This document shows, piece after piece, positions 24,155-53,347 of a stretch of 64,000 bases of DNA. A program made the translations under genes and the position numbers. The notes beneath the pieces were generated by a model that saw nothing but the letters and a program-made list of their open reading frames with translations, ran no database searches and had not been told where the DNA came from. The first letter of the stretch is position 1. Each line of letters opens with the position of its first letter. This stretch comes from an uncultured Anaerolinea sp. (GTDB lineage Bacteria > Chloroflexota > Anaerolineae > Anaerolineales > Anaerolineaceae). Location: the NCBI GenBank assembly GCA_964483135.1, contig CAZAAJ010000002.1, positions 6,511-70,510 of the forward strand, given 5' to 3'.

Positions 24155-24940
24155 TTATGTAAACATGCGTTTACGTTTCGAATTGATCAACGGAGAAACA
24201 ATTTTCCGCAGGTAATATTTGAATACGATTGGCGCAAACCAGCTGCCGCCATCGCGGTAATGCACCCGCAGCATTTCCGGCCAGCAGCGGTCATCGGCAC
24301 TTACTGTTTTTGCGCCGGAATGCAGGCGGAATTTTGCCCACGGAGTACCAGGCAGATACTTCAACTGTGTAACCTTTGCCAGCCGCACCCACAGGTCGTA
24401 ATCCATGGCGAAGAAAAAACTCGGATCCAATGGACCTGTTTTGCGCCAGTGTTCAGCCCGGAAGAAAGCTGCCGGCTGCGGAATGTGAACAAACCCGCGG
24501 CGCAGCCGGGCAAGATCGGTTTGCGCTGCGTTGAACCTGCCGATAACCTTATCATTCTCGTCAATGAAATCCAGATCGCCGTAAACCATGCCAATTTCTG
24601 GATGTTCCTGAAGGTATGCAACTGCAGCTGAAACAGCACCCGGGGTATAGGCGTCGTCAGAATTCACCCACGCGAGGATTTCACCATGCGCCTTTGAAAA
24701 CCCTTTGTTCAAGGCATCGGTTTGGCCTTTATCTCGTTCTGAAATCCAATAGGCAAGTCTGTCAGTATACTTTTCGATCACAGCAACGCTGTTATCCGAT
24801 GAACCGCCATCGATCACAATGTACTCGATACGTGGATAGTCCTGCTCAAGGACTGAGCGCATCGTCTGTTCCAGGAATCGTCCTTGGTTGAAAGACGGGG
24901 TGACGATAGAAACCAGCGGTTTTTTACCAATGGCAGACAT
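24155..24940 (-). CDS. Glycosyltransferase family 2
   Basis: 261 aa. The N-terminal GT-A signature is VSIVTPSFNQGRFLEQTMRSVLEQDYPRIEYIVIDGGSSD ... NSDD. It is a paralogue of 26474..27445. Confidence 0.88.
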   Translation of the reverse strand: MSAIGKKPLVSIVTPSFNQGRFLEQTMRSVLEQDYPRIEYIVIDGGSSDNSVAVIEKYTDRLAYWISERDKGQTDALNKGFSKAHGEILAWVNSDDAYTPGAVSAAVAYLQEHPEIGMVYGDLDFIDENDKVIGRFNAAQTDLARLRRGFVHIPQPAAFFRAEHWRKTGPLDPSFFFAMDYDLWVRLAKVTQLKYLPGTPWAKFRLHSGAKTVSADDRCWPEMLRVHYRDGGSWFAPIVFKYYLRKIVSPLINSKRKRMFT

Positions 24941-26490: not shown

Positions 26491-27445
26491 TACAGTCCTC
26501 GGATGTGTGTGGGTTTTGTCGTTTTACCCGCCTGCGGATAAACCATGACCTAAAGTTTTCCAACCCCAAGGGAGCAAAGAAAGCGAAAACCATACGGTAC
26601 CATTCTCTGCCCAAACCACGGGGATTGAGGCAAAAGCTCTTCCAATAGGTTTTAAATGACCCGCGGTAATCCTTCGCATCCAAAAGGTAAAAACCATTCA
26701 GGCGGTTTGCCCCGGCGATGATATCTTTACGATGCCGGTAAAATTCTCCAGATAAATTCGGCTGGGCCGGCATCCATTCCACTATGCGCAATGCCTCTTG
26801 TCCAAATGCTGCGGCCTGCTTCAAGTTTTTGCAATCTTCGTGGTAGTGCGCGCAAGCCCAAAGCCGGGGAATGTACTGCACCTCCCCGACCGCTGCCAGG
26901 CGGATCCACAGGTGATGGTCAAGGAGGAAGTGATAGCTGGTATCCAGGAATCCTGTTTTTTCAAGAGCAGTACGCCGCATGAAAACCGCTGGCTGCCCGA
27001 TGATGTGGAAAGACATCAGGTCGGAAAGCTGCCAATTCCTATAGGTCAACGTGTTCAGGACCTTGCCATCCAGGGTGACCACCCGGACATTACCGTAAAC
27101 GAAACTAGCCTGAGGATGCTCCTGCAGGGCTTTTACCGCGGATGCCACTGTACCGGGCAAGAGGTAATCGTCTGAATTCAACCAGGCAATAAACTCGCCT
27201 TTGGAACGCACCAGCCCCTTGTTGATCGCCTCGGCTTGCCCGGAATCCTTTTCCGAAACCCACCAGGTTAACCGGGCAGCATACTTGTTGATGATATCAA
27301 CACTGCCGTCTTTTGACCCGCCATCTACCACCATGTAATCAATGGCAGGGTAATCCTGATCAAGCACAGAGCGTATTGTCTTTTCCAGGAAGGCAGCCTG
27401 GTTAAAAGAGGGGGTGATAATACTGACCAAAGGGGTTGAAGACAT
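26474..27445 (-). CDS. Glycosyltransferase family 2
   Basis: 323 aa, with VSIITPSFNQAAFLEKTIRSVLDQDYPAIDYMVVDGGSKD ... NSDD. Same architecture as 24155..24940, plus a C-terminal extension. Confidence 0.88.
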   Translation of the reverse strand: MSSTPLVSIITPSFNQAAFLEKTIRSVLDQDYPAIDYMVVDGGSKDGSVDIINKYAARLTWWVSEKDSGQAEAINKGLVRSKGEFIAWLNSDDYLLPGTVASAVKALQEHPQASFVYGNVRVVTLDGKVLNTLTYRNWQLSDLMSFHIIGQPAVFMRRTALEKTGFLDTSYHFLLDHHLWIRLAAVGEVQYIPRLWACAHYHEDCKNLKQAAAFGQEALRIVEWMPAQPNLSGEFYRHRKDIIAGANRLNGFYLLDAKDYRGSFKTYWKSFCLNPRGLGREWYRMVFAFFAPLGLENFRSWFIRRRVKRQNPHTSEDCNDADR

Positions 27446-28248
27446 TAAAAGAGGCTTTCGTAATCCACTTTTGGGAAAATTGTAAGCTTGCCGCCGACTG
27501 TGGCATCGAGGATTTCGCGGCCGTCACGTGCGTAAGCTTCGCGCGCCATTGCATAACCGATCTCATTTCCCTTAAGGTCTGCAAGTTGCCAGCGGAAACC
27601 CTTGCCGAAATACCCCGGATGAAAATGATTGGGGTCATCGCCGGTCGACGTAACCGTTGTATTGGGTGTTCCAGTGGTGGTGTAAAAATGATCTACACCA
27701 ATTAGGACCACCTGTCTAAACCCCATATAAAATGCGAGCTGCATGGCGACAAATGTAACCGTAGAACCTTCCCATAACCGGCCAGTCGCATTTCCTGAAA
27801 ACCTCGGAAGGTCATATGATGTGTAAAGATAATGCAAATTTGGCGATGGGGTGATCCATTTCCGTCCCCGCCATGAGACGAACGTTGGGATGGTGAGCTG
27901 GCGTAAGTCCTGTGCGCACTGCTCGATCACCAAGTCATTAACGGTAAGAAGACAGGAGGTCGAAAAACCAAGTTCGGAAAATGCCATGTAAAAGCGGTTC
28001 ATCCCGATAGTGAATTCAGTTCGAAGTTTCTGCAAGTTGGTATTTTTGAGGCTCGGTCCATTGCCGATGATGAAACAACGCTCCCCTTTGTGTGTGTCCT
28101 TGAGTTGGCGTAGTTTTTTGATCGACTCCTGCCTCCAGGGGTGAAATTGCGCCTGCGGCCAGTCCAGGGCAGCTTGCAGTCTATGTTTGCCAGTTCGCAG
28201 AGAATTAACCAGCGGCTCAGGCAGGTTTTCGAGCAATTTCGATGCCAT
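27445..28248 (-). CDS. DUF115/Maf-like, CstII(GT42)-like putative nonulosonic-acid transferase
   Basis: 267 aa. The motifs CFIIGNGPSL, MNRFY, VLIGVDHFY and DDPNHFHPGYF parallel Campylobacter CstII as recalled (IIAGNGPSL, CNQFY, YLSGIDFY, catalytic-His segment). Confidence 0.65.
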   Translation of the reverse strand: MASKLLENLPEPLVNSLRTGKHRLQAALDWPQAQFHPWRQESIKKLRQLKDTHKGERCFIIGNGPSLKNTNLQKLRTEFTIGMNRFYMAFSELGFSTSCLLTVNDLVIEQCAQDLRQLTIPTFVSWRGRKWITPSPNLHYLYTSYDLPRFSGNATGRLWEGSTVTFVAMQLAFYMGFRQVVLIGVDHFYTTTGTPNTTVTSTGDDPNHFHPGYFGKGFRWQLADLKGNEIGYAMAREAYARDGREILDATVGGKLTIFPKVDYESLF

Positions 28249-28250
28249 GC

Positions 28251-29051
28251 TTACTCCGTGCTCAGGCGGGCGGTCGCACCGCCATCAACAACCAGGGCTT
28301 GCCCGGTCATGAAAGAGGATTGGCTGCCATCCGCGAGGAAAAAAATGGCGTTTGCGATCTCTTCCGGGGTGCCGATGCGTCCATTGACGGTCTTGCGGGC
28401 CAGGTTATCCAGGCGCTCACCGATAGAGCCGCCTGACAAATGTCCGCGCGCAAGACCACTTCGCAGCATAGGGGTATCCACAGCGCCCGGCAGAACAGCA
28501 TTTACGCGAATATTATTCGGAGCGAATTCAATCGCCATTGCCCGGGTGAGCGCAAGGATTCCTCCCTTGCTGGCTGCGTAGGCAGCAATATTTGCAGAAG
28601 TCTGTATCGCATGCACGGAAGAAACATTAACGATCGCTCCTCCGCCTGCCATGCACAATAATGGATGTTCAAACCTGGCTCCGATGAATACCGGTCGCAA
28701 GTTGGTGGCAATCACCTGATCCCACTCGGCTACCGTGGTTTCCACCAGGGGTTTTGAAATTTGCAGGGCTGCATTGTTAACAACAGCATTCAGAGAAGAG
28801 GTGAACAATTTGACCTTGTCAAAGATTAACGGGAATTGTTTAGCCTCTGAAATATCCGCCTGGATGAACAATCCATCCATAGGGAAGCCTTCGCCGAAAG
28901 GCTGTCGGTCAACACCAATCACCGACCACCCGCGGCTGGCAAACATCTTCACAGTAGCCCTTCCAATACCACCGGCACTGCCTGTTACCAGGACGATACG
29001 CTTGTACCCCTTAACCGCCTCTTCACCTTGTAATAATTTTTTGTTGGTCAT
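28251..29051 (-). CDS. SDR family oxidoreductase
   Basis: Start at the ATG at 29051 (MTNKK). TGSAGGIGRA Rossmann motif, NNAA, and catalytic S...YAASK. The track ORF start at 29114 lies inside the upstream gene. Confidence 0.88.
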   Translation of the reverse strand: MTNKKLLQGEEAVKGYKRIVLVTGSAGGIGRATVKMFASRGWSVIGVDRQPFGEGFPMDGLFIQADISEAKQFPLIFDKVKLFTSSLNAVVNNAALQISKPLVETTVAEWDQVIATNLRPVFIGARFEHPLLCMAGGGAIVNVSSVHAIQTSANIAAYAASKGGILALTRAMAIEFAPNNIRVNAVLPGAVDTPMLRSGLARGHLSGGSIGERLDNLARKTVNGRIGTPEEIANAIFFLADGSQSSFMTGQALVVDGGATARLSTE

Positions 29052-30000
29052 ATAAATCCTCGTGGTCAATTTCCAATCCAATGAGCAAATTACGGATCGT
29101 ATTCCAATGCACATTTTCCCAGGCAGCCGGGCTTGAGTTGGAGTTATGCGGCGCCAGCATCACATTTTTCATTTTAAGCAAAGGTGACCTTTGTGGTAAT
29201 GGTTCATGTTCAAAAACATCGAGTGCTGCGCCGGCGATCACATTATTTGCTAAAGCAGTTATCAGCGCTGTTTCATCAACGATCGGTCCCCGCGCAGTAT
29301 TCACCAGGATTGCGGTATGTTTCATCTTTCCCAGTGTTTCTTCGTTGATAAGGTGCAATGAACCCGGGTTGAGATCGCAATTAACGCTAACGAAATCAGC
29401 TTCCTTCAGCAGAGTGGCAAGATCAACGGAGGTCACATTGTTCTCCAGCAAAAAATCACGCGGGATGGGCAGGATATCATTTCCCAACAGGCGCATGCCA
29501 AAACCACGTGCACGCCGCAGAACCGCCTTGCCTATGTTGCCAACTCCGATCACTCCAAGCGTACACTCCGAGAGGGAGCGGCCAGGGATCTTTTGCCAGA
29601 CACCAGATTTTACCGCAGAATCCATCCACGGCTGCTGGCGTGCGAATGCCAGGATATAGCCCATCACGCTGTCGGCTACCGGCAGGGTGAACGCGTTAAG
29701 AGTGTTGAGCAATTTGACCGAATAGGTTGCGCAGGCTTCCTTGTCGATAGAATCGATGCCCGTACCCCATTTGGCGATCACCTTCAAGCGCGGAATACAA
29801 GCCTCAATCACCTTGCGGGTATATCGGTCATCCCCGCAGATTGTCCCATCAAACTTCCCGGCGTAGGTTAACAGGGCATCCTCTTCCAGGCGTTCATTCA
29901 CATGGGGGAGGATAAGGTTGATCCCGTAGTGCTTGAAAACAGGAGCGAATCTTTCCATGAAAGGGAGCATATAAGGGGCAGTCAATAACACGTCATACAT
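29023..30000 (-). CDS. D-isomer-specific 2-hydroxyacid dehydrogenase (glycerate/phosphoglycerate dehydrogenase-like)
   Basis: NAD motif GVIGVGNIGKAV, catalytic region NTARG...D and a His in APHNS. The ATG at 30000 has AAGAGG 5 nt upstream; the track start at 30030 is also possible. Confidence 0.88.
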   Translation of the reverse strand: MYDVLLTAPYMLPFMERFAPVFKHYGINLILPHVNERLEEDALLTYAGKFDGTICGDDRYTRKVIEACIPRLKVIAKWGTGIDSIDKEACATYSVKLLNTLNAFTLPVADSVMGYILAFARQQPWMDSAVKSGVWQKIPGRSLSECTLGVIGVGNIGKAVLRRARGFGMRLLGNDILPIPRDFLLENNVTSVDLATLLKEADFVSVNCDLNPGSLHLINEETLGKMKHTAILVNTARGPIVDETALITALANNVIAGAALDVFEHEPLPQRSPLLKMKNVMLAPHNSNSSPAAWENVHWNTIRNLLIGLEIDHEDLYDQQKIITR

Positions 30001-30064
30001 TTTTACCTCTTGCACCGAACTCTTCTCCAATCATCATATCATTCACCCTTCAATTCACAAACAC

Positions 30065-32161
30065 CTATTCCTTGATGACATATTTATACAAAATAAACTG
30101 CTCCGGACTATCGATCCGTTCAACTTCCTGCAGCCTGTTCACAAAGATCGCGTTATATGGGTCTGAGATTGTTAGAGTATATTCCTTTCCAAAGACATAA
30201 TCGAGCGGCAGGGCATCCAGCCATTTTTGCCCGTTTCCTGTTTTTATTGCCTGAAAATAATCAGCACTGTTGATCAATCCATCGAGGTTGACCACCGTGC
30301 GGTTTTGGATGAAATAGGCGGTACTTCCCCCTCCTGTCATGCCAATAAGCGACGCCTCTTCAGTAAGTGCCTCAAGTTGGGTAACTTCCGACAGGTAATC
30401 ATCCTGGTTTTCCAAAGACACCTCTTGTGGCGCCAGGTTGACGATGTAACGGATATGGAGAGTCGAAATATAGACGAACAATCCCATAAAAACAATCAGT
30501 GAGATTATTGACCGAACGCGTCCCTTTTTCATCCAAATGGTGAATCCTTCAAGCAGCACCGACCCCAACAACACCATCGAGAGCATCTGGGCAATCCAGT
30601 ACCAGGCCCGGGTATGTTGGTACCCAACTGTTGTATAGTACATGAACTGCAGAGTGGCTCCCAGCATCAGAGCCGGGATAAAAAGCGAAAACGATTTCCT
30701 GGCAAGATTGCCGTGCTTGTAATTCATTAGCATCAACACCAGGATGCTGACCACGGTAAACGAAATGCCAAATATTGACGCTGATGCGCGGGGGTTTGCC
30801 ATCTTAAACCAGCGGGTGAGTGTGTCGGCAAAAGTAAAAAACTGGTTGGTCACGAGCGACCACGCCCCGTAGTTGCCATCCGGGTACAACCCCAGCACTG
30901 TCAACAGGGTAACCTTATGTCCATAAATGGTATTTGGAAGGGTACTCCACCAGGTCTTGATCTGCCCGCTGACGGGAGTGAAGGTACCAAAAAACACCTT
31001 GTTGAGGATCATGTACGTACTGATCAACACTGCAATCGGAAGTCCAATCAAAAAACCTTCGGCAATAATGCGGCGCCAATTCAGTGTCATCCATTCAGTT
31101 AAAGCCGCCTGTGGGGATTTTTGGTTTTCATCAATTTTTTTACGCGCAACCAGATGATGGATGAAGACCAACCCGAAACTTAACAGGGCATCGATGAGGA
31201 GTATCGATTTTGACACGGTTGGAACCACTTTCAAATGGTTTAAAAGCAACAGGAACCCAAATTCGACCACCAGGGCAGCAACGGAAGCAACCACCAAACG
31301 CAGAAGCAAACCGGTAATTCTTTTACCCGAAGCAGAACTGTAAAGGCTAAGGAAGTAATACGCGATGGGTTTAACCAGCAAGCCAGCCGCGACCATGGGA
31401 TAGATAGACCTGGATTCGATCTCATACGCCGGCAAACCGAGCCGGATGAGCCAGACGATAAACCCGGAAAAAGCGATCAACACCAGGTCAATAAAAACCA
31501 CCAGCTTGATCTGCTTCACACGAAGGAGTACAAATACAATGACCACAAGCACCACGAACAGGTTGTCCAGGCGCGAAAGTATGGTCATTGCTCCCAGCAA
31601 GCCAAGGAAAACAAACTGCGTCCATTTCAGGTGTTTAAGACCTGCGGATGCCAGGATCGTTGCGGTCTTGAATAGAAACAAAACCATAAAGAAAGCGCTT
31701 ATTGCCGCTTCCATGCCATGCACGATCGTATTTGAATACACTGCCGGCAGCAGGATCCAGGTTAATGCACCGATGAAGGCTGGCCAGGTTTTCAGCGCTA
31801 TCTTAAACAATTTGAAAAGAAAAACCCCAGTGAGCCCATTGAAAAGTGCACTTACCAGCACAAGCACTCGCAAGGGGAGGATCAGGTTAAACCGTGAAAG
31901 CCAAAAAACGCCGAGGCAGACCCCCATCCACAGCGGATGAAACCCATTGGTCAGGTGGATCTGGTCAAAGGTGAACCCATGTCCGCTGAGGACATTTTGC
32001 GCAACCTTGTAGTAATAGAAGGCATCATCAATGTTGTACCAGCGCATCAGGCTGTTGGCTGGTGCAAGGGAAACATAAACACCCCCGGCAAGCCCGGCCA
32101 GAAGCAGGAACCACTCAATCAATCCAATGGAATGCTTTTTGGTCCAGCTAAACATTTCCAT
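30065..32161 (-). CDS. Large polytopic membrane protein with C-terminal soluble domain (GT-C-like glycosyltransferase or polymerase, family unknown)
   Basis: 698 aa, at least 14 hydrophobic segments, then a hydrophilic C-terminus of about 130 aa. Overlaps the upstream cytidylyltransferase stop by 14 nt. Confidence 0.6.
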   Translation of the reverse strand: MEMFSWTKKHSIGLIEWFLLLAGLAGGVYVSLAPANSLMRWYNIDDAFYYYKVAQNVLSGHGFTFDQIHLTNGFHPLWMGVCLGVFWLSRFNLILPLRVLVLVSALFNGLTGVFLFKLFKIALKTWPAFIGALTWILLPAVYSNTIVHGMEAAISAFFMVLFLFKTATILASAGLKHLKWTQFVFLGLLGAMTILSRLDNLFVVLVVIVFVLLRVKQIKLVVFIDLVLIAFSGFIVWLIRLGLPAYEIESRSIYPMVAAGLLVKPIAYYFLSLYSSASGKRITGLLLRLVVASVAALVVEFGFLLLLNHLKVVPTVSKSILLIDALLSFGLVFIHHLVARKKIDENQKSPQAALTEWMTLNWRRIIAEGFLIGLPIAVLISTYMILNKVFFGTFTPVSGQIKTWWSTLPNTIYGHKVTLLTVLGLYPDGNYGAWSLVTNQFFTFADTLTRWFKMANPRASASIFGISFTVVSILVLMLMNYKHGNLARKSFSLFIPALMLGATLQFMYYTTVGYQHTRAWYWIAQMLSMVLLGSVLLEGFTIWMKKGRVRSIISLIVFMGLFVYISTLHIRYIVNLAPQEVSLENQDDYLSEVTQLEALTEEASLIGMTGGGSTAYFIQNRTVVNLDGLINSADYFQAIKTGNGQKWLDALPLDYVFGKEYTLTISDPYNAIFVNRLQEVERIDSPEQFILYKYVIKE

Positions 32162-32825
32162 ACTCCGGTTTCGCTTTGAGCATCAGCTCGACCATTTTGA
32201 AATCGACCTCTTCATCAATATCCCACGATTCTTCGGGGGCAGTCTCAAACAGGATAGGCGACGTGCCGATGCGCGTTCCATTCTTTTTCAGACTTTCTGC
32301 TGAAAAAAGGTAAATACAGGAATTTTCCTCATACACGGGCAGCAGGTCCTGGGTTTGCAGCAGAACCCTCGGGTCGTGGTTGATGGCTTTCCCCCGCGCA
32401 TCATAAAGGCGCGTTTGCAGCCTGGTAACCGAGAATAATGAATCTTTTGCCGGCATGGCGCTTAACAGGGAGTGAATAGCCCTGGAGATGGTTTTCGAGG
32501 TCAGCAGCGGATTGGTGGAATGCGTCTGCAGATATAGATCGCCCGGAACTTGTGAAATGTCATAAAGGAGGATCTGATTCATTGGGATGTTATCGGCCTT
32601 CAACGCGTCAGGACGCGGGATTACGATAACACCCGGGAACGAACGATGAAGGCCATCGATTATCTCTTCGCTGTCGGTATCCACTGCGATGCGGGTGACT
32701 TCGGGGCAATGCTGCAAAGTAAGCAGGATGTGCTGGTAAAGGGGTTTCCCATCCAGCAGGCGGTAATTCTTGCCGGGTACCCGTTGTGAATGGTGGCGCA
32801 TGGGGATGAGTGCAGTAATTTGCAT
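32148..32825 (-). CDS. Acylneuraminate cytidylyltransferase family protein (CMP-ulosonic acid synthetase paralogue 1)
   Basis: 225 aa. The N-terminal ALIPMRHHSQRVPGKNYRLLDGKPL matches the CTP_transf_3 P-loop-like motif (IPAR..S.R.P.KN). AAGAGG RBS upstream. Confidence 0.8.
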   Translation of the reverse strand: MQITALIPMRHHSQRVPGKNYRLLDGKPLYQHILLTLQHCPEVTRIAVDTDSEEIIDGLHRSFPGVIVIPRPDALKADNIPMNQILLYDISQVPGDLYLQTHSTNPLLTSKTISRAIHSLLSAMPAKDSLFSVTRLQTRLYDARGKAINHDPRVLLQTQDLLPVYEENSCIYLFSAESLKKNGTRIGTSPILFETAPEESWDIDEEVDFKMVELMLKAKPEYGNV

Positions 32826-32846
32826 GGTAGACCTCTTTCGAACAGG

Positions 32847-33131
32847 CTAACCGCCTGTGATGACCGACATCAGGTGGATACACTCGCCTTCATGTGGAGA
32901 TTCGTCCATCAGCATGACTGGATTTTCCAGGTTGCCATCAATTACAAACATGACAGAACTGAGGAATTCATCGCCGCCAGGAGTTATCAGGATATTCACC
33001 ATGGCAGGATAACGCAAAGCTAATTCCTTAACGATTTGACGATAACGCGTTCCCTCCGGAAGCGACAGGGTGAGTTCATCTATTTCAGCAAGCTCCTTCG
33101 CAATCCCTGAGAACTCGACCTTAACCTTCAC
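32847..33131 (-). CDS. MoaD/ThiS-family ubiquitin-like (beta-grasp) protein with C-terminal Gly-Gly
   Basis: 94 aa. GTG start with GGAGG 7 nt upstream. MKVKVEFSGIAKEL...EGECIHLMSVITGG then stop. The overall pattern is collinear with MoaD (N-terminal beta-strand, C-terminal ..PPVTGG-like tail). Confidence 0.75.
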   Translation of the reverse strand: MKVKVEFSGIAKELAEIDELTLSLPEGTRYRQIVKELALRYPAMVNILITPGGDEFLSSVMFVIDGNLENPVMLMDESPHEGECIHLMSVITGG

Positions 33132-33172
33132 CTGTTAACCTCCACCGATTGATACCTGTGGATTACTGAGAT

Positions 33173-34129
33173 TCAATCTTTTATTTTACTATACTGGATC
33201 GGCTCAACCGGACGGTTGCTCTTGCTGTGACCGCTTTCAGCAGTCCGTGGATAATAGAATGTCTGCCGCAGCCCCCAGGTGAGCTGCCCGGGTTGGCGGT
33301 ATCCGCAGTAAGTTCCATAGAATTGTGCCCACCGGAAGCGAATAACCGGGAAGAAGTTGCGCCAAAAAACACCCTGTCTCCTGGCAGATTTCAAATCATC
33401 CACCGAGTTGTGATAAAAGAGACGCACCAGGTCTGCCCTGCCAAAGCGTTCCTGGGGGAAGATCCGCTTAAAAGCCATCCCTTCACGAAGGTAACGGTTA
33501 AAAATTCTTTTTGGCTTTTCGTGGTGCACATGGATAATCTCAGCTTCGGCGACATAGGAGATCCCAAAGCCTGTGCTGTGGAGCCATTTTGCCCATTCTA
33601 GGTCTTCCAACCCCGGCAGGGTTTCATCATAGGGGTGCAGCTCCCACAATTTTCGCCGAATGGCGGCATTGGCATTATTGCAGAAAGGATATTCCTGTAA
33701 CGGTTCAGAATCATCAGGGTACCAGTGTTTGAAAATCTGCTGTTCGGAAAAATGAGAATGGCTGGTACCGCGCTGTTTGCCATATGTTAACCCTATCTTT
33801 TCATCAGCAAACGGTGCCAATAACTGGTCAAGCCAATCCGGGTAGACCGGGTAAACATGCGCACTGGCCATCACTACCAGGTTAGCACCTGCTGCAGCAA
33901 TTCCCTTATTCAATGAACGTCCAAAAGTAAACTTTTCAGGAGAGATGTGGACGACGTCTACGGCGAATTCACTGGCTGCCGCGACTGTACCATCAGTCGA
34001 ACCGGAATCCACCAGGATCACCTGTACATTTTTGAGCGACTGTTCAAAGATTCCCAGCAGCAGCCGGCGAATGTGAGATTCCTCGTTGTAAGCGCGGATG
34101 ATTATCGAACAGTCAGGTTTAGCTGTCAT
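33173..34129 (-). CDS. Glycosyltransferase family 2
   Basis: 318 aa, with CSIIIRAYNEESHIRRLLLGIFEQSLKNVQVILVDSGSTDGT and a later ED acidic motif (GLEDLEW). GT-A fold. Confidence 0.85.
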   Translation of the reverse strand: MTAKPDCSIIIRAYNEESHIRRLLLGIFEQSLKNVQVILVDSGSTDGTVAAASEFAVDVVHISPEKFTFGRSLNKGIAAAGANLVVMASAHVYPVYPDWLDQLLAPFADEKIGLTYGKQRGTSHSHFSEQQIFKHWYPDDSEPLQEYPFCNNANAAIRRKLWELHPYDETLPGLEDLEWAKWLHSTGFGISYVAEAEIIHVHHEKPKRIFNRYLREGMAFKRIFPQERFGRADLVRLFYHNSVDDLKSARRQGVFWRNFFPVIRFRWAQFYGTYCGYRQPGQLTWGLRQTFYYPRTAESGHSKSNRPVEPIQYSKIKD

Positions 34130-35742: not shown

Positions 35743-35746
35743 TTGT

Positions 35747-36616
35747 CTAGATCCTGCGCAGCTTCTTCAATGACGGAAGCTCGCTGTCGTATACCTTTTT
35801 TATGCCGTCACCGACAGATTGTTCGGTAACGCGGATGTATTTAACCAGTTTTTCGAAACCACCCGGTTCAACCGAGGCTGCCTGGTCAGAACCCCACATG
35901 GCACGGTCGAGGGTAATGTGCCGTTCCACCATGCAGGCGCCCAACCCTACCGCCACTGCAGAGGTGACCAGCCCAACCTCATGCCCGGAATATCCAATGG
36001 GGCAGGAAAACGTTTTACGAAGTGTGTCGATCATTCGCAAATTCAATTCATGAGGGTCGCAAGGATAGGTGCTGGTGGCATGCGTGAGAACCAGGTTCTC
36101 CTGACCGACCAGGCTTACTGAAGTTTTAATCTGTTCCAAAGTGGACATGCCGGTTGAAAGGATCAAAGGACGACCGGTACTTCGCAAATGCGTCAGTAAC
36201 TTGTGATCGGTTAGAGATGCGGATGGGATCTTGTAGCAAATGGGGTCATACTGCTCCATGAAGTTGACGGCTTCCTCATCCCATACGGAAACAAACCAGT
36301 CAATGCCAACCTGCTTGCAAAAACGGGCAATCTCGTCATATTCTTTTTTACCAAATTCCGTCTTCTCACGGTATGCCATGTAGGTGATGTATCCCCATGG
36401 GGTTTCACGCATCTGGTTGCGCTGCTCAGGGGGGACGCATAATTCCGGAGTGCGTTTTTGGAACTTGACCGCATCCACCCCGGCGTGTTTGGCAGCCTGG
36501 ATCAGTTGTTTTGCGATTTCAATATCTCCATTATGGTTGATCCCGGCTTCAGCGATGATATAAGCAGGATGTCCATCCCCTACCAAGCGATTACCGATCG
36601 TTACTTCACGTGTCAT
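35747..36616 (-). CDS. NeuB-family nonulosonic acid (9-phosphate?) synthase, lacking the C-terminal SAF/antifreeze-like domain
   Basis: 289 aa. IIAEAGINHNGD, DAVKFQKR, STGMS and GYSGHE are NeuB TIM-barrel motifs. The ORF stops about 55-65 aa short of the other two NeuB paralogues in this window. Confidence 0.85.
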   Translation of the reverse strand: MTREVTIGNRLVGDGHPAYIIAEAGINHNGDIEIAKQLIQAAKHAGVDAVKFQKRTPELCVPPEQRNQMRETPWGYITYMAYREKTEFGKKEYDEIARFCKQVGIDWFVSVWDEEAVNFMEQYDPICYKIPSASLTDHKLLTHLRSTGRPLILSTGMSTLEQIKTSVSLVGQENLVLTHATSTYPCDPHELNLRMIDTLRKTFSCPIGYSGHEVGLVTSAVAVGLGACMVERHITLDRAMWGSDQAASVEPGGFEKLVKYIRVTEQSVGDGIKKVYDSELPSLKKLRRI

Positions 36617-36662
36617 TTTTTCTCCTATTTGAGAATTATTTTTGAATTGATGTAAGGAGTAT

Positions 36663-37898
36663 CTATTTTAACCGAGTTAAGAGGATATCACAAAGCTCCC
36701 TCACTGCGCCGCGACCACCCTGGTTCTCAAGTACCCAATCTGCCTTGCGTTGTACTTCGGGGAGGGCATCTGCGGGAGCAAATGCGAAGGCCGCCACCGG
36801 GAAACATGGCAGGTCATTGGTATCGTTACCGATGTAAATCACTTCGCCGGGGTCGATCTTCATTTCAGTCAGGTATTCTTTCAGGGCCGCTGCTTTATCA
36901 TCGATCCCCTGCAATACGGGGACATTTATCTTCCTGCACCTGGCTTCGACAACCGGGTTACGCTCCTTGGAGATGACCAGCGCGGAAATTTTTTTCTGCT
37001 CTTTCAAAATTGCCAATCCAAGGCTGTCGCTGCGGTTGGCAGCGATTGCCTCGTCGCCATTTTGACTTACCCAAACCCGATTATCAGTTAAGACACCGTC
37101 GAAATCCAATACCAGCAGTTTCACCTTACGCGGCAGCGGACGGCGCTGGTTAGCCGGGTCAACAAATGTCAGCCCACCATCGCGGATCAGGGTTTCCGCA
37201 GCACGCCAATCGGATGGTTTGTCCAGGTCCACGGTATATTTGGGGTCAATAATAAGCGGCAGGATCACCCTTCCACTCATGGATTGTTTTTCGAGGATCA
37301 CATGCGGCCGGATGGCGTCAATATGCCCGGTCTGCCAGTAGACTTCCGGCAGGATTTGGCGGGGAGCATTGAATGGTTCAGATATACCGGGAACCCCCAC
37401 GATCGGGATCATGCGTCCTTCGGGTTCGATCTTCCACATCTTATAAGGGTTTTGCCCTGCCAACACCACACCCCTCACTGAGTCGGCGGTCGGGTTTGCC
37501 AAAAGCAGCCCCACTGCCTCATCCACGCAGGTTAATGGGCGGATGGGAGAAGTCGGTCGCAGCTGGACCACTACTTCAGGTCGGTAACCCTCGTGTTCAA
37601 ACAACCACTCAAGTGCATGCTTGTAGACGGGCAGGTCAGTGGTGTTATCCCGCGCAAACTCGTCAGGGCGCAAAAAAGGCGTCTCAGCCCCCCACTCGCG
37701 AGCCACCGCGGCAATTTCCTCATCGTCGGTTGAGACGATGGTGCGTGTAACAAGGTTGGCCCGAAGCCCCGCCAAGATACTGTAAGCAATCAGGGGATAT
37801 CCGCCAAAGTCCCTGATGTTCTTGCGGGGGATTCCCTTGGACCCGCCGCGTGCCGGAATTACCGCCAGTATTTCGGGTTTTTTTACCATGCTGTCCAT
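36663..37898 (-). CDS. Fusion protein: CMP-ulosonic acid synthetase (CTP_transf_3) + KdsC-type HAD phosphatase
   Basis: 411 aa. The N-terminal half has AVIPARGGSKGIPRKN. The C-terminal half has the HAD motif I LDFDGVLTD, then SKER and GNDTNDL (KdsC/YrbI family). An alternative ATG is at 37889. Confidence 0.85.
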   Translation of the reverse strand: MDSMVKKPEILAVIPARGGSKGIPRKNIRDFGGYPLIAYSILAGLRANLVTRTIVSTDDEEIAAVAREWGAETPFLRPDEFARDNTTDLPVYKHALEWLFEHEGYRPEVVVQLRPTSPIRPLTCVDEAVGLLLANPTADSVRGVVLAGQNPYKMWKIEPEGRMIPIVGVPGISEPFNAPRQILPEVYWQTGHIDAIRPHVILEKQSMSGRVILPLIIDPKYTVDLDKPSDWRAAETLIRDGGLTFVDPANQRRPLPRKVKLLVLDFDGVLTDNRVWVSQNGDEAIAANRSDSLGLAILKEQKKISALVISKERNPVVEARCRKINVPVLQGIDDKAAALKEYLTEMKIDPGEVIYIGNDTNDLPCFPVAAFAFAPADALPEVQRKADWVLENQGGRGAVRELCDILLTRLK

Positions 37899-38704
37899 CC
37901 TCCATCCACCACCACGTTGGAACCTGTCATATAGGAAGAAGCGTCAGACGCCAGGAACAAAAGAGCACCGTTCATTTCATCTTTCCTTGCCATACGTCCA
38001 AGGATTGCCCGTGAAGAGTAGTTTTTTACAAATTCTTCCGGATTATTATTGAAAACGCCACCCGGTGTGAGCGCGTTCACGCGAATTTTCGTGCCCATGT
38101 AATAGGCAGCCAGGTATCGCGTGAGCCCCATAATGCCGGATTTGGTCACAGAGTAAAAAACAGGTTTGAATACCTTTTTCTTGCCGGCAAAATCATAGAT
38201 GCGCTGGTCAGGGCCGACCAGCCCATAAGTGGAGCAAATATTGATGATCGAACCGCTGCCCTGTTTTACCATCACCCTGCTGGCAGCCTGGGATGCCAAA
38301 AAAGCACCAGTAAGGTTGACGTTCAAACCATCCTGCCAGAACTGCAGGGGGTAATCCTCAAATGCATTGTTGCTGGTTTGCGGGTGATCAGGGTCGAACT
38401 TCGGGTCAAGCGCAGCGCTGTTCACGAGCACATCCAGGCGGCCTGTCATGGCAATTACTTTATCCATTGCGGCGCTGACAGATGCCGGGCTGGTCACATC
38501 CAGTTCAAGCCCATATACTGTGCCGGGCAATCCCTGCAAATCGCGTGTGCAACTTTCGACCAGGGTGGGATTTACATCAGCTAAAAAAACAGTCGAGCCG
38601 GCTTCTGCCAGAGTTTTGACGAATTCTTTACCCAGCAGTCCTCCTCCCCCGGTCACAACCGAAGTCTTCCCTTGTAAAGAAAATTTATCGAAGATGGTAG
38701 CCAT
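37883..38704 (-). CDS. SDR family oxidoreductase
   Basis: 273 aa, with TGGGGLLGKEF, NSAA and the catalytic YSVTK. Confidence 0.88.
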   Translation of the reverse strand: MATIFDKFSLQGKTSVVTGGGGLLGKEFVKTLAEAGSTVFLADVNPTLVESCTRDLQGLPGTVYGLELDVTSPASVSAAMDKVIAMTGRLDVLVNSAALDPKFDPDHPQTSNNAFEDYPLQFWQDGLNVNLTGAFLASQAASRVMVKQGSGSIINICSTYGLVGPDQRIYDFAGKKKVFKPVFYSVTKSGIMGLTRYLAAYYMGTKIRVNALTPGGVFNNNPEEFVKNYSSRAILGRMARKDEMNGALLFLASDASSYMTGSNVVVDGGWTAW

Positions 38705-38712
38705 GCTGCTCC

Positions 38713-39699
38713 TTAATCAAGTTTAACCAGTTTGCCAAAATGTGAGGATTGATGCACTGCCAGGGTTAATTTTAATGCTGCGATGCCATCATGGATATCA
38801 CATGCGGGGATTTCTTTCCCATTGGCAACATGAATGAAATGCTGCATTTCTGCCAGGAAAAGATGATTGCGCTCGAAACCAGCCGGTGGAAGGATTTCCT
38901 CCGGTTCGGGTCTGCCTGCCCGGAAAACCTTTGCTGAGGCAGTGGCGTTATCAAAAAAGATCGTCCCATTTTCGCCAATGATCTCGAGCGTGTGTTTTCC
39001 AGGCTGCTGCACATAATCCAGGTGAACCGTGCCAGCCAGGCTGCTCTTGAATTGCAGCCCAATCTCGGCGGTGTCTTCAACGTCCAATCCGAGACCAGCC
39101 GATGAAGTGTAAGCCCACACCGAATCGACATTACCGAACATCCAGCGTAAATAATCCAGCGGATGACTTAAAGTATTCACCACTCCCCCGCCCAATTCAG
39201 GGCGGGCGCTGTAACTCTGGCGGTAATCCTCCCAGGGGTGCCAGCCGGGCAAGTATTCACCCCAGTGCGCCCTGAAGGAAACCGGCTTGCCAATCGCATA
39301 CGCCTGTACCATTTCGCGCACCTTGCTTAACACCGGGTGAAATCGGAATTGGAAACCAACAAGCATGGGGCTGCTGTGCTCTTCGAGAGCGCGCTGCAAC
39401 TCCTCTACCCGGTTCATGTCGTGAGAGATCGGTTTTTCCATCAGGATGGCACAACCAGCCTTCGCCGCCGGGATGGCAACATCTAAATGCAGCGCGGTCG
39501 GGTTGGAAACAACGACTGCATCCGGTTGATGCGCCAGAGCAGCGTAAATCTCGGTTTCATCCGGAATTCCATTGATGTCTGCTTCAGGCAAGGTGGAGTG
39601 GTGAGAGCGCAGCAAAACGAAATCGGTCTCCCCCAATGCGCGCAGATTATTTAAGTGGCGGCGGCCAATCGAACCAAAACCACAAATGAGCGTTTTCAT
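38713..39699 (-). CDS. Gfo/Idh/MocA family oxidoreductase
   Basis: 328 aa. N-terminal Rossmann MKTLICGFGSIGRRH and the EKP motif (LMEKPISH). First gene of the minus-strand operon 39699->24155. Confidence 0.88.
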   Translation of the reverse strand: MKTLICGFGSIGRRHLNNLRALGETDFVLLRSHHSTLPEADINGIPDETEIYAALAHQPDAVVVSNPTALHLDVAIPAAKAGCAILMEKPISHDMNRVEELQRALEEHSSPMLVGFQFRFHPVLSKVREMVQAYAIGKPVSFRAHWGEYLPGWHPWEDYRQSYSARPELGGGVVNTLSHPLDYLRWMFGNVDSVWAYTSSAGLGLDVEDTAEIGLQFKSSLAGTVHLDYVQQPGKHTLEIIGENGTIFFDNATASAKVFRAGRPEPEEILPPAGFERNHLFLAEMQHFIHVANGKEIPACDIHDGIAALKLTLAVHQSSHFGKLVKLD

Positions 39700-41290: not shown

Positions 41291-41300
41291 GGAGATTAAC

Positions 41301-48756: not shown

Positions 48757-48768
48757 CGTATTTGCTGC

Positions 48769-49839: not shown

Positions 49840-49856
49840 GTCCTCCTTACCTAAAA

Positions 49857-51778: not shown

Positions 51779-51812
51779 GGCAACCTCATCAATAACAGAA
51801 TATTTGGTTTAC

Positions 51813-53312: not shown

Positions 53313-53347
53313 TTTTCCTCCTTTTCTTAAGGAAAATAAAGGTAGCC

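Follow-up and report, generated by a model that had tools for sequence, protein, structure and literature searches.

Several elements of the pathway considered here are known from other organisms. NeuB-family synthases without a SAF domain were noted earlier (PMC8208679), and a characterised SAF-less Kdn-9-P synthase is known from P. parvum (PMC6200933). The fusion of a CTP_transf_3 domain to a KdsC-type HAD domain occurs in vertebrate CMAS and in "some types of bacteria", and the homologous C-terminal domain of mouse CMAS showed no phosphatase activity in vitro (PMC8636478). In human NANS, the preference for a phosphorylated substrate has been attributed to the alpha2-beta2 loop (PMC8208679). 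Kdn-containing teichulosonic acid is present in the walls of Streptomyces, where NeuE, NeuA and NeuB (SCO4879-4881) belong to a cluster for wall polymers without phosphate that is activated by PhoP (PMC11481543, PMC3479208, PMC13011467), named the teichulosonic-acid cluster in PMC13011467. The same S. coelicolor cluster has a gene for a NanE-like ManNAc-6-P epimerase (SCO4873).

The window, i.e. the whole stretch of 64,000 nucleotides of an uncultured Anaerolinea sp. (Chloroflexota) that was analysed, carries on its minus strand a module of four genes: a GFO/IDH/MocA oxidoreductase (GFO), an SDR, a CTP_transf_3::HAD fusion and a SAF-less NeuB of 289 aa (NeuB-289). We propose that this module probably encodes a bacterial nonulosonic-acid pathway that follows the phosphate route and is of the Kdn type. 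The pathway type is known and the phylum is new; the fusion, the SAF-less NeuB and the SAF-less Kdn-9-P synthase all have precedents. The ORF check and the Pfam and NCBIfam scans recovered the four ORFs, domains and motifs of a preliminary description of this DNA at the same positions, including AVIPARGGSKGIPRKN, LDFDGVLTD and GNDTNDL in the fusion. That description had the module headed by the two oxidoreductases, which holds within the window; in relatives, however, co-directional genes extend upstream of GFO. It had also taken the 46-nt gap from 36616 to 36663 as the spacer downstream of NeuB. Because the module is on the minus strand, this gap lies on the N-terminal side of NeuB; on the C-terminal side, 4 nt (35743-35746) precede the next ORF, and there is still no room for a SAF domain. 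The features are listed in table 1.

Table 1. Positions of the module, its domains and the downstream operon in the window.
Feature	Position	Strand	Basis or remark
GFO/IDH/MocA oxidoreductase, 328 aa	38713..39699	-	Pfam PF01408, PF22725, PF02894
Classical SDR, 273 aa	37883..38704	-	Pfam adh_short, adh_short_C2
Fusion ORF, 411 aa	36663-37898	-	
CTP_transf_3, CMP-nonulosonate synthetase domain, residues ~9-238	37185..37874	-	P-loop intact, PARGGSKGIPRKN
C0-type HAD phosphatase, KdsC/YrbI subfamily, residues ~254-408	36675..37139	-	NCBIfam and catalytic residues
SAF-less NeuB-family synthase, 289 aa	35747..36616	-	PF03102 alone; predicted sugar-6-phosphate:PEP condensing enzyme, Kdn-9-P synthase type
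NeuB residues 54-88: K54-R55 (KFQKR) and extended alpha2-beta2 loop (...RETPWGYITYMAYREKTEF)	36353..36457	-	Proposed phosphate-recognition element
NeuB C-terminal helix and tail, residues 277-289 (...ELPSLKKLRRI)	35750..35788	-	Stands in place of linker and SAF
Capsule_synth (KpsC/KpsS-like) / BFO_1060-family glycosyltransferase, 538 aa	34126..35742	-	PF05159; starts 4 nt past NeuB stop
Remainder of co-directional glycan operon	24155..34129	-	Pfam/NCBIfam scans; conserved in Anaerolineae (synteny, loci L001-L052)
GT2	33173-34129	-	Operon member
ThiS-like	32847-33131	-	Operon member
Second CTP_transf_3	32148-32825	-	Operon member
698-aa membrane protein	30065-32161	-	Operon member
D-2-hydroxyacid dehydrogenase	29023-30030	-	Operon member
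Second SDR	28251-29114	-	Operon member
MptE/Maf-like protein	27445-28248	-	Operon member
GT2, PMT_2 GT-C, another GT2	within 24155..34129	-	Operon members

NeuB-289 matches PF03102 at residues 38-273 (257 bits), and Pfam gave no SAF match in the 289-aa protein, in agreement with the preliminary description. The two other NeuB paralogues of the window (342 and 356 aa) each have NeuB plus SAF (PF08666) and are 53-67 residues longer. This difference is the only argument for a truncation (pseudogene) or for an error of assembly or reading frame in the short form, a reading that is already refuted. No SAF remnant was found downstream of NeuB-289 in any frame; hundreds of full-length homologues of 289-291 aa form a deep clade, with over 100 of this length at 80-97% identity; and contigs of four independent metagenome runs span the stop codon and differ there by substitutions, never by indels. 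Nearly all of the 150 closest representative clusters have lengths of 270-300 aa. AlphaFold predicts a complete barrel (pLDDT 95.3, pTM 0.91), with the SAF-less PDB entry 6NCS as best fold match, and all the metal and PEP ligands of the NeuB family are present. The C-terminal tail, helical at residues 277-286 in the model, shows clade-wide conservation of E279 and of a K/R-L-R motif (among 150 representatives, E279 in 132, K/R285 in 109, L286 in 112 and R287 in 104).

Among the three window paralogues, NeuB-289 is the best match for the P. parvum, BT1714-type and Streptomyces synthases. The P. parvum Kdn-9-P synthase, a Man-6-P-specific enzyme of 312 aa with no room for a SAF domain, is 35% identical to NeuB-289 and scores 140 bits against it, versus 115 and 91 against the SAF-bearing paralogues. 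The BT1714-type enzyme (the NeuB adjoining BT1713) is 33% identical, with 149 bits versus 130 and 105, and retains SAF. On alignment, all three synthases share with NeuB-289 the K54-R55 pair (K-x-x-K-R) and the long alpha2-beta2 loop, both absent in six references (NmNeuB, PseI, SpsE, 6NCS and the two SAF-bearing window paralogues). The pair and the loop are present in human NANS too, which retains its antifreeze-like domain (PDB 1WVO). W112, a non-acidic residue at 134 and G211 are common to NeuB-289 and the P. parvum enzyme but not to the BT1714-type enzyme, so the synthase signature is only partly general. The preliminary description implied that the loss of SAF marks the phosphate route. 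It is neither necessary nor sufficient, because the BT1714-type enzyme, like human NANS, keeps SAF and the Leptospira protein 6NCS is SAF-less but does not have the phosphate-route signature.

Regarding the fusion, its CTP half matches PF02348 (residues 12-137, 61 bits) and the PseF model TIGR03584 (residues 11-237) with 142 bits, under the cutoff of 205.7, versus ~39 bits for the KdsB models; its PDB relatives are 9FTB (NeuA), 6IFD, 1EYR and the mouse CMAS N-domain 1QWJ. Model matches place the KdsC/YrbI-type HAD at residues 257-408. In NCBIfam it scores 118 bits with KdsC, 102 with TIGR01670 (cutoff 107) and 86 with the KDN-9-P phosphatase (cutoff 180); the KdsC models thus outscore the Kdn-9-P phosphatase model, and no equivalog cutoff is passed. 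Among PDB entries, 3MMZ is the closest and the C-domain of mouse CMAS (3EWI) also matches; identity to BT1713 is 34%. In BT1713 numbering, the HAD has D10, D12, S54, K80, D104 and D107, as well as the sugar-binding residues E56, R64 and K67. D10, D12, S/T54 and K80 are conserved in ~70 HAD domains and D104 and D107 in all but one, while E56 and R64 are found in 71/71 sequences and K67 in 70/71. The fusion agrees with the Kdn-9-P phosphatase BT1713 in having E at position 56 and K at 67, where the KdsC structures 2R8E, 3I6B and 7T35 have R and T; as a marker, this pair reportedly comes from Lu et al. 2009. The HAD thus keeps its nucleophile, acid/base Asp, Ser and Lys and the two later Asp of motif IV. 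In all fused forms and in 3MMZ, Asn replaces the first Asp of that motif (GNDTND); the equivalent residue of BT1713, D103, is the Mg2+ ligand.

The HAD adjoins a SAF-less NeuB in 42 of 48 Chloroflexi loci, always fused to CTP_transf_3. In other phyla this is the case in 14 of 22 loci, of which eight are fused and the rest have a free-standing HAD; single-chain CTP-HAD-NeuB (P0122) and HAD-NeuB (P0123) fusions were also found. In Streptomyces, the gene directly after a 3MMZ-type HAD is a SAF-less NeuB with 58% identity to NeuB-289 over 289 residues, and the neighbours of this pair are a polysialyltransferase-family gene and a GT2. From its layout, we infer that locus L081 is equivalent to SCO4879-4881. 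There is neither SDR nor GFO near the Streptomyces pair, which indicates that the core reaction can do without them.

In the Kdn-type route, NeuB-289 would form a nonulosonate 9-phosphate (Kdn-9-P) by condensing PEP and the 6-phosphate of a hexose, most probably of mannose. The C-terminal HAD of the fusion would then remove the 9-phosphate and the N-terminal CTP_transf_3 would convert the free sugar to its CMP derivative, perhaps with channelling, before the KpsC/BFO_1060-like transferase and glycosyltransferases pass the activated sugar to a surface glycan. The linkage of the genes, the HAD marker residues, the basic pair and loop of the synthase and the Streptomyces orthologue all favour the Kdn-like or otherwise 9-phosphorylated intermediate that had been suggested, and a Kdn-like product is our best guess. 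The motif IV Asn, the lack of activity of the mouse CMAS C-domain, the higher KdsC scores of the HAD and the three synthase positions that the BT1714-type enzyme does not share weigh against this reading. Alternatively, the route could be animal-like, from ManNAc-6-phosphate to Neu5Ac-9-P, followed by dephosphorylation by the HAD and CTP activation, with SDR and GFO, like PtmA and PtmF, helping to supply the amino-sugar phosphate precursor. The presence of the KR pair and loop in human NANS agrees with this, and BT1713 has reportedly been crystallised with Neu5Ac. The loop has been tied to ManNAc-6-P use (PMC8208679), PtmA and PtmF have been assigned to the part of the legionaminic acid pathway that supplies precursors (PMC4481668, SugarBase preprint), and the S. 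coelicolor cluster includes SCO4873. We nevertheless consider the Neu5Ac route unlikely: the Pfam and NCBIfam scans found no epimerase (2-epimerase included), kinase, aminotransferase or N-acetyltransferase in the operon, and separate NeuC-based and PseB-based modules in the window already cover the amino-NulOs. Moreover, the closest characterised synthases are Kdn-9-P synthases, the 58%-identical orthologue is from a genus with Kdn in a wall polymer, and the SDR is far under the PtmA equivalog cutoff.

Two other readings have a still lower probability. The HAD could serve for oligomerisation and not for catalysis, as it does in vertebrate CMAS, with the SAF-less NeuB using an unphosphorylated sugar and no phosphate route at all; the mouse C-domain has the same fold and its phosphatase activity was not detected (PMC8636478), the motif IV Asn is common to all fused forms, and 6NCS is a SAF-less NeuB barrel without phosphate-route features. 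A pure scaffold would need none of the conserved residues, yet the nucleophile, acid/base Asp, motif II Ser, motif III Lys and three sugar-binding residues are kept in ~70 sequences, and the two remaining motif IV Asp in all but one. The free-standing HADs beside NeuB in other phyla, the HAD fused to NeuB and not to a cytidylyltransferase, and a synthase with the KR pair and loop found in enzymes that use sugar phosphates also make this very improbable. An ulosonic acid of another chain length, be it an octulosonate similar to Kdo, made from arabinose-5-P, or a longer product of an unusual sugar phosphate prepared by the redox enzymes, would fit the top HAD scores with KdsC models and the KpsC/KpsS (Capsule_synth) family of the downstream transferase; in FCB-group loci, in addition, the SDR-HAD-NeuB core adjoins a split transketolase that could make non-standard sugar phosphates. 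This is equally improbable given E56/K67 as in Kdn-9-P phosphatase instead of the R/T of KdsC, the preference of the CTP domain for PseF/NeuA over KdsB models, and the nine-carbon product of the closest characterised synthases.

Downstream, an orthologue of the 538-aa transferase is found in 37 of 40 Chloroflexi loci. Its NCBIfam matches (BFO_1060_trans and TIGR04396) are under cutoff, and it probably transfers the CMP-activated sugar. The operon has a second cytidylyltransferase, which may activate the product instead of the fusion.

SDR and GFO are accessory redox enzymes. For the Kdn-type route, our best guess is that together they would invert one hydroxyl by oxidation and renewed reduction (an epimerisation), either in the precursor or in the nine-carbon sugar; the end product may then be an isomer of Kdn and not Kdn itself. 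The SDR is a conserved partner of the module and the GFO a looser one: an SDR orthologue lies within 4 kb upstream in 45 of 48 Chloroflexi loci, and in FCB-group loci too, while 25 of 34 Chloroflexi loci and 1 of 17 others have a GFO orthologue in the 9 kb upstream of the synthase. The GFO has the GxGxxG and EKP motifs, and Arg31 after beta2, present in 29 of 32 orthologues, points to NADP(H) as cofactor. Its best NCBIfam matches, IolG and UDP-GlcNAc 3-dehydrogenase, are both under cutoff; it is similar to PtmF/WlbA-type sugar dehydrogenases/reductases, with 3CEA, 3Q2K and 3Q2I as PDB relatives. The SDR is PtmA-like, yet not a PtmA equivalog (NF050062, 130 bits, cutoff 350; PRK09186, 190 bits, cutoff 255). 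It has an intact TGxxxGxG motif and catalytic triad (Ser, YxxxK), and the Asp that closes beta2 (Asp43), found in 58/58 orthologues, points to NAD(H). The last 16 nt of the SDR gene, stop codon included, are also the first 16 nt of the fusion gene.

The preliminary description read the module as a phosphate route to a Kdn-like product in which a single polypeptide both removes the phosphate and activates the sugar with CMP, and to judge from sequence comparison its main point appears right; the product, the substrate and the redox step of the module are predictions. Systems of this kind are already on record for Bacteroides, a haptophyte alga and animals and, by inference, for Streptomyces, and CMAS has the same fusion architecture. 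New are the phylum, a fused phosphatase that is probably active, a usable signature of the synthase, and a conserved, unexplained short-chain dehydrogenase/reductase (SDR) with a GFO/IDH/MocA partner (GFO).

The 289-aa synthase (NeuB-289) matches PF03102 over the full model (positions 1-241; 257 bits, cutoff 22.1), and its AlphaFold fold matches 6NCS and 1XUU with TM values of 0.88-0.89. All metal and PEP ligands of Neisseria meningitidis NeuB (E25, K53, Q55, K129, S132, S154, Y186, S213, H215, E234, H236 and D247) were found, as E23, K51, Q53, K129, S132, S154, Y184, S210, H212, E231, H233 and D244, respectively, and E134 of the reference is replaced by Ser. In agreement with the preliminary description, NeuB-289 gives no match to the SAF model (PF08666), stopping 16 residues past the barrel, and the two paralogues in the window (342 and 356 aa) have both NeuB and SAF by Pfam. 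Its scores lie below the equivalog cutoffs of NeuB_NnaB (248 versus 400 bits) and PseI (207 versus 340 bits), and it is not of the canonical two-domain NeuB/PseI/LegI type. In that type, SAF supplies Arg314 to the sugar site of the partner subunit, and the substrates are unphosphorylated sugars. The statement that no room is left for a SAF domain downstream was borne out, since no SAF-like sequence occurs there in any frame, the length of 289-291 aa recurs in more than 100 homologues at 80-97% identity, and almost all of the nearest 150 representative clusters, down to about 40% identity, have 270-300 aa. Contigs of four independent runs span the stop codon and differ by substitutions only, and the AlphaFold model (pLDDT 95.3) is a complete, confident barrel with a terminal short helix. 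The 46-nt gap cited in this connection was misplaced, because the genes are on the minus strand: it lies in front of the NeuB gene, and the gap behind is 4 nt.

Residues of NeuB-289 were mapped onto six references, namely N. meningitidis NeuB, C. jejuni PseI, B. subtilis SpsE, 6NCS and the two SAF-bearing window paralogues. It shares with the P. parvum Kdn-9-P synthetase K54-R55 (KFQKR), W112-D113, a non-acidic residue 134, G211 (SGH instead of SDH) and a basic K-L-(R/K) C-terminal tail; in the six other references 54/55 are non-basic, 134 is acidic and 211 is Asp. Among the window paralogues the P. parvum enzyme matches NeuB-289 best (35% identity; 140 bits versus 115 and 91), and it too has no room for SAF (it translates to 312 aa). 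Unlike the window system it is eukaryotic, only 35% identical and without a linked phosphatase gene, and the CMP-Kdn synthetase is a separate, membrane-anchored protein; it uses Man-6-P, not mannose (PMC6200933).

A second anchor is B. thetaiotaomicron, whose Kdn pathway has been described as BT1714 and BT1713 with an adjacent cytidylyltransferase (PMC6200933); the BT1713 sequence was taken from the supplement of that paper. Using BT1713 as query we located its locus, and the adjoining NeuB, which by adjacency is BT1714, was compared with the window. BT1714 is reportedly a Kdn-9-P synthase, and BT1713 a Kdn-9-P phosphatase, in the work of Wang et al. in 2008 and Lu et al. in 2009. Unlike NeuB-289, the BT1714-type enzyme (346 aa) keeps SAF and has C112, D134 and D211; its K-x-x-K-R pair is retained, as is the long alpha2-beta2 loop (reading DNPNSFGRTYGEHRAFLEL, with PNPRNSYGDTYGAHREFLEF in P. 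parvum and ETPWGYITYMAYREKTEF in NeuB-289), and of the three window paralogues its best match is NeuB-289 (149 versus 130 and 105 bits). The same loop has been credited with the phosphate-substrate preference of human NANS (PMC8208679). Because both anchors share the basic pair and the loop, and given this role of the loop, the combination is by sequence a feature common to the sugar-phosphate-using enzymes examined, and NeuB-289 has both. NeuB-289 thus carries what we use as a working signature of sugar-6-phosphate-dependent NulO-9-P synthases (NulO, nonulosonic acid), K-x-x-K-R plus an extended alpha2-beta2 loop, derived here from two anchor enzymes only and lacking in the six other references. 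W112, the non-acidic 134 and G211, also considered as a general phosphate-route signature, apply to the P. parvum enzyme and the NeuB-289 clade, not to the BT1714-type enzyme, and were demoted to a clade feature. The loss of SAF, treated in the preliminary description as a tell-tale of the phosphate route, had to be abandoned as such. It is not necessary, as the BT1714-type enzyme keeps SAF, nor is it sufficient: the Leptospira borgpetersenii protein 6NCS, SAF-less at about 285 aa and the best structural match of the NeuB-289 model (TM 0.88/0.89), has neither the KR pair nor the long loop, carries D134 and D211 as the references outside the clade do, and is a separate SAF-less lineage. Human NANS also retains SAF. 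The basic pair with the long loop should be a better marker for spotting a sugar-phosphate-using NeuB than the presence or absence of SAF. SAF-less NeuBs were noted earlier in environmental bacteria, including Streptomyces scabiei (PMC8208679).

The 411-aa protein was described as a fusion of CTP_transf_3 with a KdsC-type HAD phosphatase, and the whole-model alignments agree: residues 11-237 cover the entire PseF-type model (142 bits, cutoff 205.7) and residues 257-408 the entire KdsC/YrbI phosphatase model. CTP_transf_3 (PF02348) scores 61.4 bits against a cutoff of 22.6, with an intact P-loop (PARGGSKGIPRKN). The domain order is that of vertebrate-type CMAS, a synthetase followed by a KdsC-like C-domain in one chain, residues 8-238 matching the mouse N-domain (1QWJ) and 257-406 the C-domain (3EWI).

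The HAD half is 34% identical to BT1713, the numbering of which is used here. When some 70 HAD domains from the loci surveyed are aligned, Asp10 (nucleophile), Asp12 (acid/base), the motif II Ser/Thr and Lys80 of motif III are conserved, and Asp104 and Asp107 are present in all but one; Glu56 occurs in 71 of 71 sequences and Lys67 in 70 of 71, and Arg64 is conserved as well. According to Lu et al. (J Biol Chem 2009), Arg64, Lys67 and Glu56 reportedly bind the sugar, and Glu56 and Lys67 are said to have been proposed as markers separating Kdn-9-P from Kdo-8-P phosphatases. By HMMER alignment, positions 56/67 are Arg/Thr in the solved KdsC proteins 2R8E, 3I6B and 7T35, and Glu/Lys in 3MMZ, the nearest solved relative, as in the window. 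Motifs I-III of the window HAD are intact (D, D, S, K). Motif IV reads GNDTND, versus GDDxND in BT1713, with the other two Asp kept; all fused forms and 3MMZ carry Asn at the position where the free-standing HADs of Bacteroidota and Ignavibacteria (FCB group) have the first Asp, a caveat that may bear on Mg2+ binding. The catalytic Asp residues on which the preliminary description had made its reading depend are thus present as nucleophile and acid/base, the change to Asn being at the first Asp of motif IV. The domain scores below cutoff for the Kdn-9-P phosphatase equivalog NF058599 (85.6 versus 180 bits), narrowly for the YrbI subfamily TIGR01670 (102 versus 106.95) and for the KdsC equivalog (117.6 versus 208), and is therefore a member of the C0 HAD '8KDOP' subfamily and an equivalog of none.

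These residues bear on a fair rival to a working phosphatase, namely that the HAD half is a dead scaffold as in vertebrate CMAS, which shares the two-domain architecture and whose C-domain, found in vertebrates and some bacteria, has no phosphatase activity in vitro in the mouse and serves oligomerisation (PMC8636478). The window domain differs from the mouse C-domain in that its catalytic and sugar-binding residues are conserved, and in other lineages the HAD is free-standing or fused to NeuB, both of which speak against a scaffold; the phosphatase domain of the fused enzyme is probably active. Animals have a separate phosphatase, NANP. A fusion with an active-looking phosphatase makes an instructive counterpart to the vertebrate CMAS C-domain, the inactivity of which is puzzling, and could be a one-enzyme tool for CMP-Kdn.

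To see whether phosphatase and synthase are coupled, 80 loci with NeuB-289 relatives were fetched and their neighbours scored with the window's own proteins. A HAD lies directly upstream of the synthase in 42 of 48 Chloroflexi-labelled loci, always fused to a cytidylyltransferase, and in 14 of 22 loci of other phyla, eight of them fused. The SDR is found within 4 kb upstream in 45/48 Chloroflexi-labelled loci versus 7/22 of other phyla, GFO within 9 kb upstream in 25/34 versus 1/17, and a CapS-like transferase downstream in 37 of 40 Chloroflexi-labelled loci. Single-chain fusions also occur among the representative proteins: CTP_transf_3-HAD-NeuB (P0122), HAD-NeuB (P0123) and several CTP_transf_3-NeuB or NeuB-CTP_transf_3 chains. 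The NeuB-289-type synthase is thus genetically coupled to a predicted NulO-9-P phosphatase, and the repeated adjacency, together with repeated fusion in different orders, is good evidence that the three activities would be consecutive steps of one pathway. In the B. thetaiotaomicron locus they are likewise encoded side by side; there, unlike in the window, the phosphatase is a separate protein of 164 aa, and the readable 2.5 kb of the Bacteroides contig has no SDR or GFO. The nearest NeuB-289 relatives are labelled Anaerolineaceae, Anaerolineales or Chloroflexi, and the window sequence recurs in aquatic, groundwater and subsurface metagenomes. A literature search gave no relevant report of Kdn or NulO in Chloroflexi/Anaerolineae. 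The module would extend the phosphate-dependent Kdn-type pathway, characterised before only in the Bacteroides, haptophyte and animal systems, to the Anaerolineae (Chloroflexota), abundant and mostly uncultured filamentous bacteria that live in groundwater, sediments and sludge and have hardly been studied for their surface glycans.

A link to Kdn chemistry came from 3MMZ, which as query retrieved Streptomyces proteins annotated as 'KdsC family phosphatase' and 'N-acylneuraminate cytidylyltransferase'. In one Streptomyces genome the HAD gene, with the GND motif and E56/K67 as in the window, immediately precedes a NeuB-only gene of 312 aa; next to it lie a polysialyltransferase-family gene, a GT2 and an acyltransferase. 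This NeuB is 58% identical to NeuB-289 over 289 residues, with the same motifs (KFQKRTPE, TPWG, GYSGHE, DRAMWGSDQAAS and KKLRR). Unlike in the window, the HAD is not fused to a cytidylyltransferase and follows a DUF6716 region. No CTP_transf_3, SDR or GFO was found within 9 kb, which suggests that the HAD and the short NeuB are the core and the oxidoreductases additions. Streptomyces walls are decorated mainly with a Kdn-containing teichulosonic acid (PMC11481543). A PhoP-activated cluster of S. coelicolor devoted to phosphate-free wall polymers includes the NeuE/NeuA/NeuB-like genes SCO4879-4881 (PMC3479208); it is named the teichulosonic-acid cluster in PMC13011467. From its layout we infer that the locus examined is the counterpart of SCO4879-4881; if so, a Kdn-pathway enzyme is an orthologue of NeuB-289. 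For Streptomyces a NeuA::HAD fusion was considered and rejected, as DUF6716, and no CTP_transf_3, occupies the long open frame in front of the HAD. In the Streptomyces locus L081 the 3MMZ-type HAD ends a 695-codon frame of which the gene caller annotated only the last 226 codons, the N-terminal part being DUF6716, a putative glycosyltransferase; the frame may represent a glycosyltransferase::phosphatase fusion or may be an artefact of high GC.

Features of the window and of related loci
Feature	Position	Strand	Remarks
GFO/IDH/MocA oxidoreductase	38713-39699	-	328 aa; first in transcription direction
Classical SDR	37883-38704	-	273 aa
CTP_transf_3::HAD fusion	36663-37898	-	411 aa
NeuB-only synthase (NeuB-289)	35747-36616	-	289 aa
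Capsule_synth/BFO_1060-like transferase	34126-35742	-	538 aa; directly after NeuB-289
ThiS-like to second SDR	28251-33131	-	syntenic with the module across Anaerolineae
MptE-like/Maf-type domain protein	27445-28248	-	in the operon
NeuC/CBS-NeuA/NeuB+SAF cassette	40151-43426	+	within low-GC block, ~40.0-46.0 kb
PseB-type module	46904-55060	-	also RmlD-like reductase, GT1, KdsB-like cytidylyltransferase, Asn-synthase-like protein, second BFO_1060/Capsule_synth-like transferase
PseB equivalog of that module	50774-51778	-	499 bits, cutoff 408
NeuB+SAF of that module	48769-49839	-	
Aminotransferase-type cluster	L075, 2693-11131		
Aminotransferase-type cluster	L059, 4232-10818		
Aminotransferase-type cluster	L061, L065, L072, L077, L079, L080		
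3MMZ-type HAD frame	L081, 7594-9678		695 codons
Sulfurylase/kinase and GT-C genes	L039, 3447-6786		between GFO and SDR

In the window the module belongs to a minus-strand glycan operon that runs on to ~24.1 kb through a GT2, a ThiS-like gene, a second cytidylyltransferase, a large membrane protein, a D-2-hydroxyacid dehydrogenase, a second SDR, an MptE/Maf-like protein and more glycosyltransferases. The operon structure is deduced from the genes overlapping or lying 4-46 nt apart, since a scan of 28.0-40.3 kb for consensus promoters and terminators gave counts at the level of shuffled sequence. Among the RNA runs searched for the NeuB-289 gene, none had it. Of the genes between the GT2 and the MptE-like gene, all of them syntenic with the module across Anaerolineae, the ThiS-like protein has 94 aa, the stand-alone CTP_transf_3 225 aa, and the multi-pass membrane protein 698 aa without a Pfam or NCBIfam match; a second activated acid and a substituent on the sugar are both possibilities for this set. 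Maf proteins, to which the MptE-like protein is related by domain, are proposed nonulosonate transferases. Among the NeuB-289 relatives, P0189 is a NeuB::MptE-like fusion of 941 aa.

Two further nonulosonate modules are present in the window. The plus-strand cassette is canonical, its NeuC being a hydrolysing 2-epimerase equivalog (415 bits, cutoff 236), and the block around it has a GC content of 36-39% versus ~50% elsewhere. Because it is missing at the same position in the relatives L012, L018, L022 and L033, the cassette looks like a lineage-specific insertion that split a once-continuous operon: the relatives have the unbroken co-directional string NeuB356-GT1-CTP-h306-GT2-Glyphos_transf-GFO-SDR-fusion-NeuB289. 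Reading the whole low-GC block (40-46 kb) as one inserted island was rejected, since only the neuC-neuA-neuB cassette is absent from the relatives; the two low-GC glycosyltransferase genes flanking it have syntenic homologues there. That the module is headed by two oxidoreductases therefore holds for the window, as a result of the insertion, and not for the relatives, whose string continues upstream of GFO. With the PseB-based module as the third, this single genome stretch encodes three different NulO routes: phosphate-type, NeuC-based and PseB-based.

In the SDR the catalytic Ser and YxxxK are intact, and beta2 ends in an invariant Asp (58/58) that classically marks a preference for NAD(H). 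GFO carries EKP and, following beta2, an Arg conserved in 29/32, like those members of its family that prefer NADP(H); the two are predicted to be NAD-type and NADP-type, respectively. Over its whole length the SDR can be aligned to the PtmA model NF050062, although at 129.7 bits against a cutoff of 350, and equivalence to PtmA was rejected. In legionaminic-acid clusters the CMP-synthetase gene stands between those for PtmA, an SDR, and PtmF, an oxidoreductase of 326 aa, both of which are assigned to the precursor-supply segment of that pathway (PMC4481668). The clusters of Campylobacter, Vibrio and Plesiomonas resemble the window in having a ~255-270-aa SDR and a ~326-aa oxidoreductase by a CMP-NulO synthetase. 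They differ in that their products are di-amino NulOs derived from nucleotide-linked precursors, their synthases carry SAF and a phosphatase is lacking.

Another conserved cluster surrounds the SDR-HAD-SAF-less NeuB core in Hymenobacter, Ignavibacteria, Chitinophagales, Chloroherpeton and Kapaibacterium, in the order GT, CTP_transf_3, split transketolase, class-III aminotransferase, the core, and an FA_hydroxylase-family gene; no GFO was found in the clusters of the Hymenobacter, Ignavibacteria, Chitinophagales and Chloroherpeton type. The product of this cluster might be an amino-nonulosonate or a lipid head group; a neuraminic-acid aminoglycosphingolipid occurs in Chlorobium. With GFO present in Anaerolineae and the aminotransferase in the other group, one reading would cover both contexts: the NAD-type SDR would form a keto intermediate, which GFO would re-reduce in Anaerolineae (an epimerisation) and which would be transaminated in the other group. 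A hexose phosphate, a nonulosonate or a CMP derivative could each serve as the redox substrate. A more specific joint reading, which we consider unlikely, would have the SDR oxidise one hydroxyl of Kdn or of a phosphorylated precursor to a keto group. In Anaerolineae and the one Pirellulales locus seen, re-reduction by GFO would give an undescribed Kdn isomer, and in Bacteroidota, Ignavibacteria and Chlorobi the aminotransferase beside the SDR would aminate the intermediate, a route to neuraminic acid or another amino-nonulosonate from mannose-6-P, not from a hexosamine; a lipid head group would be possible there, given the linked fatty-acid-hydroxylase gene. The fused phosphatase/cytidylyltransferase would in the same joint reading be a catalytically active, ancestor-like form of the silent vertebrate CMAS C-domain. 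The tight linkage of the SDR, with GFO or an aminotransferase as partner depending on lineage, marks a putative tailoring step that could lead to new nonulosonic acids.

Two minor observations concern the loci surveyed. In some Anaerolineales (for example L039) GFO and the SDR are separated by genes for a bifunctional ATP-sulfurylase/APS kinase and a PMT-like GT-C, which hints at sulfated glycans in these lineages. Three short contigs (L015, L046 and L054), binned as Thiomonas, Gammaproteobacteria and Porphyromonadaceae, carry near-Anaerolineae cassettes at 67-72% identity and are probably mis-binned contigs rather than transfers.
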